Shown one piece after another: positions 26,034-29,041 of a stretch of 64,000 bases of DNA (position 1 is its first letter; the number at the start of each line of letters is the position of its first letter). Below the pieces are notes generated by a model. That model saw only the letters and a list, made by a program, of their open reading frames with translations, was not told where the DNA came from and searched no databases. The position numbers were made by a program, and so were the translations under genes. Source of the DNA: an uncultured Haloferula sp. (GTDB taxonomy: Bacteria; Verrucomicrobiota; Verrucomicrobiia; Verrucomicrobiales; Akkermansiaceae); contig CBFGTS010000005.1 of assembly GCA_965652295.1 (NCBI GenBank), positions 32,001 through 96,000 on the forward strand, read 5' to 3'.

Positions 26034-27338
26034 TTAGATGAGCATCAGGGCGGGCTGCTCAAGGAGCTTTTTCATTTCCGCGAGGAACTGGGCCGCGACG
26101 GCCCCGTCGACGACGCGGTGGTCGCAGCTGATGCCGAGGTTCATCCGCAGGCCGGGAACGATCTGGCCGTCCTTGACGACGGGCTTTTCGATCGCGCCCC
26201 CGACGCTGACGATCAGGGCCTGAGGCGGGTTGACAATAGCATCGAAGGATTCGACGCCCCAGGCACCGAGGTTGGAGACGGTGATGGTGCCGCCGTCGAA
26301 CTCGCTCGGTTTGAGTTTTTTGTCCTTGGCGCGGGCGGCCATGTCCTTGACCTCCTTGGAGATCTGGAGGAGCGACTTGGTCTCGGCGTTCTTGATGACG
26401 GGAGTGACGAGGCCGTCCTCGACGGCGATGGCGACGGACATGCCGACACTGGCGAACTGGACAATCGAGTCGCCGGCGAAGGAGGCATTCACGGCGGGCA
26501 CGGCCTGGGCGGCGTTGATGGCGGCTTTGAGGACGAAGTCGTTGACCGAGTACTTGTTGCCGTGGGTCTGCTCGGCCTGGGTGTTGACCTGCTTGCGCAG
26601 CGCCATCAGCGGTGCCATGTCGACTTCCGCGTGGAGGTAGAAGTGGGGGATGGTCTGCTTGGAGAGCAGGAGGCGCTCCGCGATGATCTTGCGCATCGAG
26701 CTGAGCGGCAGGGTCTGGTCGCCTTCTTTCGCGGTCGGCTGGATGGCTTGGGGAGCGGGTGCAGGAGCCGGTGCGGAGGATTTCGCCTTGGCGGCGGCGG
26801 CAAGACCGGCGGCAGCGCTGGCCTGTGAGCTTTTCGGAGCGGGAGCGCCTTTGGCGGCTTCGACGTCGGCCTTCACGATGCGGCCGGCGGGGCCGGAGCC
26901 CTGAAGTGTGGAAAGCTCGACTCCGTTCTCCGCGGCGATTTTACGGGCGAGGGGCGAGGCTTTGATGCGGTCACCGGATTCGGTCGTCGCCTCGGCCTTG
27001 GATGCCGGCGTTTGCGGGGCGGGGGCGGCTTGTTGTTCGGCGGGCTTGGCAGGAGCAGCTTCGGCTGCCTTCGGAGCCTCGGGTGATGCGGTTCCGGCAT
27101 CGTCGCCATCAAGCACGGCGAGGACGCCACCGATGGGGGCCTTTTCGCCTTCCTGGACGCGGATCTCGGTGATGGTGCCTTCGTCGAACGCTTCCATTTC
27201 CATGGTCGCCTTGTCGGTTTCGACTTCAGCGACGATGTCGCCGATCTCGACGCTGTCGCCGACCTGCTTGTGCCATTTGATGAGAGTACCCTCGGACATG
27301 GTGTCCGAGAGCTTGGGCATTTCGATGTTGATAGCCAT
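26034..27338 (-). CDS. pdhC: Pyruvate dehydrogenase E2, dihydrolipoamide acetyltransferase
   Basis: Lipoyl motif ETDKATME, E3-binding ASPLARKIA and catalytic DHRVVDGA. Confidence 0.96.
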   Translation of the reverse strand: MAINIEMPKLSDTMSEGTLIKWHKQVGDSVEIGDIVAEVETDKATMEMEAFDEGTITEIRVQEGEKAPIGGVLAVLDGDDAGTASPEAPKAAEAAPAKPAEQQAAPAPQTPASKAEATTESGDRIKASPLARKIAAENGVELSTLQGSGPAGRIVKADVEAAKGAPAPKSSQASAAAGLAAAAKAKSSAPAPAPAPQAIQPTAKEGDQTLPLSSMRKIIAERLLLSKQTIPHFYLHAEVDMAPLMALRKQVNTQAEQTHGNKYSVNDFVLKAAINAAQAVPAVNASFAGDSIVQFASVGMSVAIAVEDGLVTPVIKNAETKSLLQISKEVKDMAARAKDKKLKPSEFDGGTITVSNLGAWGVESFDAIVNPPQALIVSVGGAIEKPVVKDGQIVPGLRMNLGISCDHRVVDGAVAAQFLAEMKKLLEQPALMLI

Positions 27339-27428
27339 GGATTGAGTGAGGAAAGGGGCTGCGCCGGGAGGCTTGCCCGAAGCGGGGGTCAAATCCAGCG
27401 TTTTCGGAGATGCTGAGCTTGCGGTGGG

Positions 27429-27466
27429 AAAAAGAAAGCGGAGCTCGGCATGACCGGGCTCCGCTT
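27429..27466 (-). terminator. Intrinsic terminator after the Cys-rich lipoprotein gene
   Basis: AAGCGGAGC(T)CGG/CCGGGCTCCGCTT stem followed by a T tract on the minus strand. Confidence 0.8.
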
Positions 27467-27499
27467 GGAAAGCAGGGTTGGAAAATCAGATGATCTCGC

Positions 27500-27889
27500 T
27501 CAAGGGGCGATCGGCTTCATCGTCGGGATCAGGCCAATATGCGGGCTGCCGGAGGCACCTTGGGCGGTGGCCATCTTGCGGGCGGCCTCGGTGTTGGAGC
27601 CGCAGCAGCCTTCCTTGAGGCAGTAGAAGCGGACGCAGCTCGGGCACTTCACGAAGACCTTCCTGGTGCGCTCTTTGTAGCGGGGAACTTTCTTCTCGGT
27701 GACTTCGACGAGGCCGGACTTGGCGTCGATCACCTTTTCTTCGCGGACGATGTCGTAGCCGCAAGCCTTGGCTTGGTAGGTTTCCGTCTTCACGCCGGAA
27801 AAGAAGTTCCGCACGCCAAACATGGAGCAGCAGGAGCTGAAGCCGAGGGAGAGGGCTACGAGCGACAGGAGCAGGGTCAGGTTTTTCAT
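27500..27889 (-). CDS. Cys-rich putative lipoprotein
   Basis: Signal peptide ending LGFSS-CC, plus CPSC, C and CC residues. Strong GC3 codon bias. Confidence 0.75.
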   Translation of the reverse strand: MKNLTLLLSLVALSLGFSSCCSMFGVRNFFSGVKTETYQAKACGYDIVREEKVIDAKSGLVEVTEKKVPRYKERTRKVFVKCPSCVRFYCLKEGCCGSNTEAARKMATAQGASGSPHIGLIPTMKPIAP

Positions 27890-27910
27890 GTGAATCAGTA
27901 AGATGAAGGG

Positions 27911-27985
27911 TCAGAAGAGGCAGCAGCAGGACGAGACCGCGAGGCACGCCATGGTGATGATGACAAGACGGACGAGGTTGAACAT
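27911..27985 (-). CDS. 24-aa micro-ORF consisting of a lipoprotein signal peptide plus CCCLF
   Basis: MFNLVRLVIITMACLAVSSCCCLF*. Nearly all codons end in C/G, and a promoter-like element lies directly upstream. Confidence 0.6.
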   Translation of the reverse strand: MFNLVRLVIITMACLAVSSCCCLF

Positions 27986-27992
27986 TGTTGGA

Positions 27993-28020
27993 ATGCTACG
28001 GTTGGCGGGATCGCTGGCAA
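27993..28020 (-). promoter_or_regulatory. Sigma70-like promoter (TTGCCA-N16-TAGCAT) for a probably leaderless transcript
   Basis: The -10 hexamer ends 7 nt before the micro-ORF ATG. Confidence 0.55.
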
Positions 28021-28054
28021 CGAAAAAGCTTGGTCGTGACGGAGTTGGTCGCGT

Positions 28055-29041
28055 TCAGCCCATGGTCAGCACGCGCTCGATGATGCGCCGCGGGTTCGGA
28101 AGCTGTTCGGGCTCGACGAAGGGCGAGTAGATCGCCGGGGCGTCGCGGGTGGTGACGCGTTTGATCGGCGCGTCGAGGTAATCGAAGGCCTCGTCCTGGA
28201 TGATGTGCGAAACCATGGCGGAAACGCCGCCGAAGCCCTTGGATTCGTCGACCAGAACGACGCGGTTGGTTTTGCGGACGGTGGCGAGGATCGCCTCGAC
28301 ATCGAGCGGCCGGATTGAGCGGAGATCGAGCACCTCGGCGGAAATGCCGTGTTCTTCCTTGAGTTTCTCGGCAGCGGCGAGCGCGTGGAGGACGGAGCGG
28401 CCATGGGCGATGAGGGAGACGTCGGAGCCCTCGCGCTTGAGGTCGGCCTTGCCCAACGGAACGACGTGATCGCCCTCGGAGGGGTCGGGAACCTCGCCGG
28501 AGGTGCCGTAAAGGAGGACGTTCTCCATCACGTAGACCGGGTCGTTGTCGCGGATCGCGGCCTTGATCAGTCCTTTGGCGTCGGAAGGGGTCGCGGGCAC
28601 GCAGACCTTGAGGCCGGGGAAGGACGCGAACAGGGCCTCGGGCACGTGGCAGTGGGTGGCGCCGACGTTGTTGCCGCCGTTGGCGGGGCCGCGCATGACG
28701 ATCGGGACATTAATCAACCCGCCGGACATGTAGCGGACGCAGGCGGCGTTGTTGACGAGCTGGTCGAAGGCGACGGAGTGGAACGACCAGAACATCAGCT
28801 CCATGACCGGACGGACGCCGAGCATGGAGGCGCCGACGCCCATGCCGATGAAGCCGGCTTCGGAAATCGGGGTGTCGACGACGCGCTTGTCGCCCCACTT
28901 GGCCCAGAGGCCTTCGGTGACCTTGTAGGCGCCGTTGTACTGGGCCACTTCCTCGCCGAGGATGACGACGTTCTCGTCGCGGGCGAGTTCCTCATCAAGG
29001 CCTTCACGGAGCGCTTCGCGGTAAGTCAGGGTGCGGGACAT
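28055..29041 (-). CDS. pdhB: Pyruvate dehydrogenase E1 beta subunit
   Basis: GEEVAQYNGAYKVT, DTPISEAGF and DLRSIRPLD motifs. Confidence 0.96.
   Translation of the reverse strand: MSRTLTYREALREGLDEELARDENVVILGEEVAQYNGAYKVTEGLWAKWGDKRVVDTPISEAGFIGMGVGASMLGVRPVMELMFWSFHSVAFDQLVNNAACVRYMSGGLINVPIVMRGPANGGNNVGATHCHVPEALFASFPGLKVCVPATPSDAKGLIKAAIRDNDPVYVMENVLLYGTSGEVPDPSEGDHVVPLGKADLKREGSDVSLIAHGRSVLHALAAAEKLKEEHGISAEVLDLRSIRPLDVEAILATVRKTNRVVLVDESKGFGGVSAMVSHIIQDEAFDYLDAPIKRVTTRDAPAIYSPFVEPEQLPNPRRIIERVLTMG

Follow-up and report, generated by a model that had tools for sequence, protein, structure and literature searches.

The smallest known lipoproteins are the colicin lysis proteins (PF02402) and the entericidins, whose mature forms have about 20–30 residues and one Cys. 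The current study concerns a micro-gene of 24 codons, encoding a prolipoprotein-like peptide that ends in SSCCCLF, and the gene for a 129-aa Cys-rich lipoprotein (the partner) that follows it. Both were found in a stretch of 64,000 nucleotides (the window) from an uncultured Haloferula sp. of the family Akkermansiaceae (GenBank assembly GCA_965652295.1, contig CBFGTS010000005.1, positions 32,001–96,000, forward strand). The comparative data leave hardly any doubt that the micro-gene is a real gene under purifying selection, in which signal-peptide chemistry is joined to a Cys tail. With its equivalents at other loci it represents a real, previously unannotated gene class, an extreme variant of the lipoprotein kind, and the predicted products would be shorter than any lipoprotein that was found described. 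The colicin lysis proteins and entericidins are likewise short prolipoproteins, presumably processed by the same standard pathway, but the micro-peptide had no match in Pfam (nor in NCBIfam).

Hybrids between lipoproteins and ribosomally synthesised and post-translationally modified peptides (RiPPs) have been described as DAG-RiPPs; according to the available part of that report, an MNIO enzyme encoded alongside them modifies their core, and they were mined at lengths of 50–160 aa (PMC13056109). As far as that part describes them, they have in common with the micro-gene a ribosomal precursor with a lipoprotein signal (assigned here by sequence only), use of the host Lgt, LspA and Lnt, and Cys in the core (PMC13056109). 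The micro-gene precursors differ in length (23–30 aa) and core size (4–9 residues), and no modifying enzyme adjoins them, in a search confined to neighbouring genes. The string 'Verrucomicrob' is absent from the main text of the DAG-RiPP study (PMC13056109).

The chlamydial proteins OmcA and OmcB are presented, in the accessible portion of the source, as Cys-rich envelope proteins of a structure-giving complex, OmcA being a 9 kDa lipoprotein (PMC2811131). OmcA resembles the partner and micro-product as a small Cys-rich lipoprotein from the same superphylum, and the same source portion points to the same ambiguity between signal peptidases I and II (PMC2811131). Unlike OmcA, the predicted micro-product is a pentapeptide, and DsbA and DsbB were not found in the source genome. 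No chlamydial Cys-rich Pfam family was detected in scans of 68 partner sequences, the micro-peptide or B2, a small lipoprotein described below.

Braun's lipoprotein (Lpp) occurs in only some of the Gammaproteobacteria, going by the available text of 10.1101/2021.05.31.446380. In another verrucomicrobium, Methylacidiphilum, an abundant Lys-ended lipoprotein (WP_009060351) was found in the peptidoglycan fraction, as given in the available part of PMC10260701. Mycobacterial polycysteine leaderless attenuators, as outlined in the available portion of 10.1101/834739, consist of a short ORF (open reading frame) that pairs with a downstream ribosome-binding site. The micro-gene resembles these in its consecutive Cys codons and as a putatively leaderless short first ORF (−10 element 6–10 nt from the ATG in 48/50 loci), but its RNA showed no pairing with the start of the next gene, none of the genes seen downstream is for Cys metabolism, and its export signal is conserved.

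All four micro-peptides tried, including the exact source sequence, were absent from a collection of 15 billion proteins. Literature searches on small lipoproteins, on ribosomal lipopeptides and on Verrucomicrobia or Akkermansia, which did not extend to supplements and most subscription papers, yielded no description, and the word 'lipoprotein' occurs 0 times in the review PMC12648545. A preliminary description, made from the sequence of the window, had stated that no system like this was known, and no curated family or paper with an equivalent was found. Since the micro-genes fall below annotation cut-offs, the whole class may be unseen. If they are processed as predicted, the lipoprotein pathway would make a lipid with a gene-encoded head group of 4–9 residues.

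Structure and conservation of the micro-gene

The unit comprises the following features.

27993..28028, minus strand: predicted promoter-like site (T-run; TTGCCA at 28020–28015; 16 nt; TAGCAT at 27998–27993)
27911..27985, minus strand: micro-gene, 24-aa prolipoprotein-like ORF ending SSCCCLF (sequence and cross-genome conservation)
27929..27985, minus strand: putative signal peptide, residues 1–19, lipobox V-S-S (lipobox consensus fit; omega 0.38; predicted cleavage)
27914..27928, minus strand: predicted mature peptide CCCLF (CCC in 50/50; omega 0.06)
27890..27910, minus strand: spacer of 21 nt, unstructured, no Shine–Dalgarno motif (orthologous spacers 10–95 nt)
27500..27889, minus strand: partner lipoprotein gene, 129 aa (ORF; family-wide homologues; predicted hairpin model)
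27429..27466, minus strand: intrinsic-terminator-like hairpin and U-run (folding z −3.66)

A set of 110 partner loci was compared, 50 from genera g1 and g5 (27 and 23), which correspond to Haloferula and Luteolibacter, and 60 from other genera; g11 denotes Rubritalea, g3 Akkermansia and G000 the source genome. A micro-ORF lay 10–95 nt upstream of the partner in 50/50 g1/g5 loci and in 0/60 loci from other genera; related genomes are not independent, and the g1/g5 conservation figures given here are not significance tests. S-C-C-C was invariant in all 50, at a length of 23–25 codons, and the mature forms were CCCLF (40), CCCMF (4), CCCL (3), CCCM (2) and CCCLFS (1). The stop codon was TAA in 36 and TGA in 14. 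Lys or Arg was present in the n-region of every g1/g5 peptide and Asp or Glu in none (0/50), while all 414 residues of the hydrophobic cores were uncharged (A, L, V, C, G, I, T, S, M or F only), with a mean hydropathy (GRAVY) of 2.43 and a minimum of 1.87 at 46 loci.

Selection was estimated as dN/dS (omega) from 21 of 23 non-overlapping pairs (two distant pairs were dropped), covering 46 of the 50 loci. Omega was 0.38 for the micro-gene signal and 0.06 for its tail, compared with 0.30 for the partner signal and 0.135 for two partner anchors; in shifted reading frames of the same pairs, the proportion of synonymous differences did not exceed that of nonsynonymous ones. When neutral evolution was simulated (20,000 runs), an open frame, a clean core and SCCC[LM] survived in 0.35% and 0.005% of runs at two distances. 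An exact DNA pattern searched over 185,579 genomes gave 62 matches, a set that overlaps the 50 g1/g5 loci: 50 were a micro-ORF with a partner, and 12 had neither signal nor partner.

The preliminary description had itself named a decayed duplicate of the partner's 5' end as one objection to its gene. This explanation, or that of a chance ORF, now has a negligible probability. The micro-gene is visibly like the partner's 5' end at the DNA level, partners of g12 (11/11) and g13 start with CCC[LM][FL], and two g11 copies are broken, but frame, start, stop and CCC were kept in 50/50 loci with synonymous change and TAA/TGA exchange. Omega below 1, the 38 further copies found elsewhere and the 12/62 outside pattern matches lacking signal or partner also speak against decay. 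Short ORFs with a signal-II-like start and a mature part of no more than 10 residues numbered 3 in G000 and 4 and 3 in two shuffled genomes; being as common by chance, they leave the case for the micro-gene resting on comparison. Among the ORFs of that scan, the promoter accompanied only the real micro-gene.

The 24-codon ORF (minus strand) and the 129-aa ORF 21 nt further on agreed in coordinates and sequence with what had been described. The promoter also stood up: TTGCCA-N16-TAGCAT was the sole promoter-like site across 27200–28400 (shuffle mean 0.3), its −10 hexamer ends 7 nt 5' of the ATG, and in g1/g5 the pattern was matched in 48/50 loci at 6–10 nt from the ATG, with constant hexamers and a varying spacer between them. 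The proposed terminator after the partner corresponds to the hairpin and U-run at 27466–27429 (−25 kcal/mol, z −3.66, equalled in 0/200 shuffles), which was not among the sites listed by a consensus terminator scan. The C/G-ending codons noted earlier were present, with a G+C content at third codon positions of 0.92 in the micro-gene compared with 0.85 in the partner, but in a genome of 63.5% G+C this is weak evidence for coding. Metatranscriptome contigs from three runs matched parts of the partner at 99–100% and none crossed 27904–28035; such contigs can show neither a start nor absence.

Orthologous g1/g5 spacers were poor in G (74/1114 nt), with a Shine–Dalgarno-like word in 0/50. These start regions (27890–27910 and orthologues) suggest Shine–Dalgarno-independent initiation in the family. 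It was also seen that locus L142, titled Prosthecobacter, encodes a micro-peptide identical to that of the Luteolibacter-titled L150, with the partner also there; this is probably a naming issue.

The unit is flanked by genes that lie outside it.

28055..29041, minus strand: pdhB, upstream flank (PF02779, PF02780)
26034..27338, minus strand: pdhC, downstream flank (PF00198, PF00364, PF02817)

The pdh setting that had been described was thus confirmed by Pfam for the window, but pdhB is absent at many partner loci of relatives.

Equivalent micro-genes at other loci

Equivalent micro-genes (a signal, then 4–9 residues with at least three Cys, then a stop) were found in 38 further genomes of g10, g11, g12, g15, g17 and g19, bringing the carriers to 88 genomes in 8 genera; the mature part always had 4–9 residues and at least three Cys. 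The 38 additional peptides had Lys or Arg near the start in 37/38 and Asp or Glu in 0/38. Profile searches in g10 placed a micro-gene in 19/42 genomes (CCCW 8, CCCL 7, CCCF 3, CCCLF 1). In g11 an intact micro-gene lay inside 12/18 clusters of the Lys-ended lipoproteins described below (B clusters; CCGCM, CGCGCG and variants), with two broken and four without, and profile searches added two more g11 copies; the B cluster of locus L289 likewise holds an intact one. Stand-alone micro-genes occurred in 2/31 g15 genomes and in one genome each of g17, g19 and g12. The CCCLF tail is common to g1, g5, g10 and g12, CCCLF or CCCMF stand-alone genes occur in g10, g15 and g17, and the Cys spacing across genera includes CCC, CCGC and CGCGC. 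At the level of loci, no accepted micro-gene was present in 5 g10 loci, in 28/30 g15 loci (with one doubtful candidate, L343) or in 9/9 g20 loci examined.

The neighbours varied. In g10 the adjoining gene is presumably glnB-like or another unrelated gene, judging from N-termini, and in genome G090 a MarC-family gene adjoins the micro-gene. In G070 (95% complete) pdhB and pdhC flank a lone micro-gene, and the genome gave no partner match. The pairing with a Cys-rich lipoprotein that had been proposed therefore holds in g1/g5, where a partner follows in 50/50 loci, but not for the stand-alone copies of other genera or for G070. Equivalent genes at unrelated loci argue against both a decayed duplicate and a cis-acting leader. 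Cultured species of Haloferula, Luteolibacter and Rubritalea carry the genes, which makes them directly testable.

Some g11 B clusters contained damaged copies: in L224 and L226 one micro-gene lacks a start and the other is out of frame with its start, through decay or assembly error. In L294:1400-1649 (G019, g19) a nine-residue micro-gene is followed by another short Cys-cluster lipoprotein ORF.

A Cys-sensing leader, in which ribosomes that stall on CCC would regulate the next gene and the peptide would have no role of its own, is very improbable. Its appeal lies in a 5' untranslated stretch of no more than a few nt, a run of three Cys codons close to the stop, a Cys-rich next gene, and the use of TGC in 148/150 tail codons (271/288 for the partner's downstream Cys). 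The TGC bias may equally reflect codon optimisation of a highly expressed gene, and the g11 copies use TGT in 17/43. Pairing of the partner start region with the ORF was 0.126, compared with 0.133 in synonymous controls, and was higher in just 19/50 loci; with no pairing excess over these controls in 50 loci, an attenuator is unsupported. The Cys tract was paired downstream above 0.5 in 0/50, the spacers are mostly 10–30 nt and G-poor, and Rfam gave a single match, far below its gathering score. A leader would have no need of the conserved signal chemistry; moreover, the downstream genes differ by genus with none seen for Cys synthesis, and g11 interleaves Gly (CGCGC).

Equally improbable is a released lipopeptide that acts as a signal or antagonist between cells. 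The tail differs by genus, and vesicles can release acylated peptides of small size. Such a role is at odds with a tail that is near-invariant across two genera and a CCCLF form common to g1, g5, g10 and g12, and no receptor, transporter or immunity gene was seen among the neighbours.

The partner and the Lys-ended lipoproteins

A partner homologue was present in 189/301 family genomes; none was found in 218 genomes from other families of the class, nor in g3. The nearest named relatives are Haloferula proteins (87–88%). The predicted layout is a signal, a CC-x-MF start, a long beta-hairpin with Lys57 at its tip and a CxxC-C-CC cluster at its base. Lys57 was kept in 63/68 homologues, and each of Cys20, 21, 82, 85, 90, 95 and 96 in 58–66 of 68. 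The structure model has a pLDDT of 67.8, with strands at 30–55 and 60–81, and comparison with 48,161 PDB chains (VIA-align) gave none at Z of at least 2. No Pfam family names the partner or its 68 homologues. Among 1.84 billion representatives, a profile search retrieved 96 matches, of which two long weak ones that were inspected (P0212, P0215) proved to be repeat sequences, and the top matches of an Atlas search were unnamed Verrucomicrobiota clusters. A suspected likeness to planctomycete YTV repeats found no Pfam support and was dropped. In single-gene genera, a promoter-like site lay 10–12 nt before the partner ATG wherever the pattern matched.

Some partner genes are damaged or shortened. 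Two g12 partners have internal deletions (L304:1437-1635 in G012 and L305:1500-1803 in G088), one lacking the whole Lys-tipped hairpin and the other the CxxC-C-CC block. In L093 (G194, g10) the partner gene is broken after its first 30 codons, and this locus was excluded from the micro-gene counts.

A whole-genome scan for short ORFs in G000 detected B2, which forms a unit with B1 at G000:C25:31666-32046 (L175:3167-3547, plus strand).

G000:C25:31666-31782, plus strand: B1, 39 aa, small Cys-cluster lipoprotein ORF ending in Lys
G000:C25:31897-32046, plus strand: B2, 50 aa, small CCC lipoprotein ORF ending in Lys

B2 was matched in 172/201 family genomes (E ≤0.05) and its profile matched 24/24 Akkermansia (g3) genomes, with only weak matches beyond the family. 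Over 85 B loci, Lys is the last residue of 188/197 small lipoprotein ORFs that contain Pro. In G014 the partner gene is immediately followed by the B cluster. A Pfam scan gave no family match naming B2; PF02402 appeared as a weak feature match (0.87, rank 14). The stop codon TAA was used by 171/197 B genes and 36/50 micro-genes, compared with 330/3278 long ORFs of G000, a codon bias that suggests high expression of both.

The LPP family (PF04728) had 0 matches in G000, which is 98% complete, and an E. coli control was positive; 11 matches to YkuD, an L,D-transpeptidase family, were found in G000. B1 and B2 are candidate Lpp analogues, conserved family-wide including Akkermansia. Like Lpp and WP_009060351 they are small lipoproteins with an N-terminal Cys and a C-terminal Lys, a tie between outer membrane (OM) and peptidoglycan having been proposed or shown for those two in the available part of PMC10260701; the likeness to WP_009060351 is one of described features. 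Unlike Lpp, they are Pro-rich with Cys clusters and not helical, and the micro-peptide itself has no Lys. The cluster is a testable candidate for Lpp-less OM anchoring in Akkermansiaceae, including the gut symbiont Akkermansia.

Lipidation and proposed function

The favoured reading, to which we give a probability of roughly 0.4, is that the micro-peptide is a two-thiol linker in an OM tethering mesh of Cys-cluster lipoproteins. The micro-gene transcript would be leaderless or nearly so and its product an exported prolipoprotein. Lgt would add diacylglycerol to Cys20, LspA would cleave after residue 19 and a third chain may come from Lnt. The resulting lipid-CCCLF would be a membrane anchor that carries two free thiols and lacks Lys. 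It would be the smallest in a set of Cys-cluster lipoproteins that is specific to the family and includes the partner and B1/B2. It would join these at the membrane surface through metal–thiolate bridges or uncatalysed disulfides, and the Lys ends of the mesh would be bound to peptidoglycan, replacing Braun's lipoprotein.

Lipidation and cleavage of the micro-peptide are probable, and once lipidation is granted the linker role stands at about even odds. Lgt, LspA, Lnt and LolA are all encoded in G000. The source lipobox V-S-S-C fits the consensus [LVI][ASTVI][GAS]C (PMC6952399), and Leu occupies position −3 in 14/19 g10 and 10/14 g11 micro-genes, with Leu, Met or Phe there in 19/19 of g10; for long lipoprotein-like ORFs of G000, Leu is at −3 in 54/102. 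The micro-gene precedes the partner in g1/g5 and sits within the B cluster in g11, which links it with lipoproteins whose mature N-terminus is a Cys cluster. Lys lies far from the anchor in these, at the C-terminus of B1/B2 and at the predicted hairpin tip of the partner (Lys57), and the bond of B1/B2 Lys to peptidoglycan is proposed by inference. The 11 YkuD matches without Lpp in G000, together with the Lys-ended lipoprotein in the peptidoglycan fraction of another verrucomicrobium, favour a tethering role.

Several observations weigh against the linker reading. A strict lipobox fit was obtained for 18/50 g1/g5 micro-genes and 20/50 partners, leaving 32/50 micro-genes that miss it despite invariant Ser at −1 and Cys at +1. 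Position −3 is Ala or Ser in 27/50, which is compatible with signal peptidase I, and in B1/B2 it is Ala, Ser or Gly in 44/44 pattern matches. The passage of so short a peptide through the Lol pathway may be questioned. DsbA-type, DsbB and VKOR families (PF02600, PF07884, PF13462, PF01323) were not found in G000; DsbB was present in 0/41 family genomes, and VKOR in 16/41 but not in G000. No bias to even Cys numbers was seen among Cys-containing exported proteins (0.48, in a crude gene set). Profile searches found no micro-gene in 20 g20 genomes, 29/31 of g15 and 23/42 of g10, and the micro-genes of g10 and g15 lie distant from both partner and B cluster. No short frame of this kind was among the matches listed for 17 Akkermansia-type genomes, though B2 is in 24/24; since B2 is present where the micro-gene is absent, the latter is accessory and no obligate subunit.

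The preliminary description had offered a disulfide partner as one role, and this option lost ground, as the source genome has no catalyst among the families searched. Chlamydia reportedly has a DsbA/DsbB pair, but an enzyme-catalysed disulfide mesh of the chlamydial type is unsupported in G000, where DsbA, DsbB and VKOR families were not found. With no Dsb oxidase found, the links would be metal-bridged or uncatalysed. The same result raises three rivals: a stand-alone chelator, a non-lipidated form and extra acylation.

A lipid-CCCLF that acts alone as a membrane metal or thiol buffer, chelating Cu, Zn or similar, is unlikely, though it is to be taken seriously. Three Cys are kept while their spacing varies (CCC, CCGC, CGCGC), no disulfide catalyst was found in G000 where a DsbD-type reductant is encoded, and the gene stands alone in g10, g15 and g17. 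Its placement within the Lys-ended cluster (g11) and before the partner (g1/g5) points instead to a shared function, and the neighbours seen were pdh genes, glnB, a MarC-family gene and the B cluster, none of them for metal transport or resistance.

Processing without Lgt and LspA has a smaller probability. The peptide would then stay in the membrane uncleaved, a helix of 24 aa whose Cys tail faces the periplasm (compare MgrB), or signal peptidase I would free (S)CCCLF. This would suit the small residue at −3 in 29/50, Ala at −4 in 44/50 and the additional Cys at −6 in 28/50 g1/g5 genes. The lipobox signature is ambiguous, and in the available part of the OmcA report predictors misrank signal peptidase I over II, but the same part gives OmcA as proved to be a lipoprotein despite prediction (PMC2811131). 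Against a non-lipidated form are also the invariant S(−1)–C(+1), the Leu, Met or Phe at −3 in 19/19 g10 and Leu in 10/14 g11 genes, and a signal part that drifts as the partner's signal does, unlike a binding helix.

Somewhat less probable again is acylation of the extra cysteines beside the anchor, by which the micro-gene would yield a ribosome-templated, multiply acylated lipid-like membrane component. All members have a Cys cluster at the membrane surface, no oxidase would be necessary, and G000 has a second Lgt-like gene beside a Tes-like radical SAM gene. The second Lgt is on another contig, and no Cys micro-gene was seen in the stretches listed. We know of no bacterial precedent for acylation of the extra cysteines.

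The second Lgt-like gene belongs to an operon-like run in G000:C10 (L371:2080-4444, plus strand) with a radical SAM gene that is Tes/TrsS-like but scores below curated cut-offs, and a gene for a 119-aa membrane protein, which ends in a hydrophobic Cys-containing tail. A 50-aa lipoprotein-like ORF with Thr runs (G000:C10:40815-40967, minus strand) lies about 600 nt upstream of the radical SAM gene on the opposite strand. Other short lipoprotein ORFs (G000:C21:58107-58280, plus strand, and L292, L297 and L303) resemble entericidins.

In its widest form, the linker reading becomes an undescribed envelope scaffold of the Akkermansiaceae, which we put forward as a doubtful proposal. Lys-ended B1/B2 and the Lys-tipped partner would tie the OM to peptidoglycan, and lipo-tetra- to nona-peptides, each with two free thiols, would cross-link them without a Dsb oxidase, via metal–thiolate bridges. 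The micro-genes would then form a new class of ribosomal lipopeptides without modification, placed more than once beside the genes they serve.

Origin of the micro-gene

Mature partners start with CCCLF, CCCLL or CCCMF in g12 (11/11), CCCMF in g13, CCGLF in g17, CCGMF in g18 and mostly CCSMF in g1/g5. On this sequence likeness the micro-peptide tail and the N-terminus of the mature partner are homologous, and a 5' duplication of a partner-like gene at some point is likely. The CCC[LM][FL] start of g12 and g13 partners, and a promoter in front of the partner in single-gene genera, at first spoke for a recent duplication in the g1/g5 ancestor; this idea was weakened by the stand-alone CCCLF/CCCMF genes in g10, g15 and g17. 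Quick trees (the partner tree omitted L093, L095, L097 and L106; the pdhB tree used 62 of 77 rows) put g12 either unresolved or nested in g5, so the g12 partner may be a later fusion. The pdhB tree grouped g1, g5 and g12 together (95) and g11 with g10, indicating that the micro-gene moved or arose more than once.

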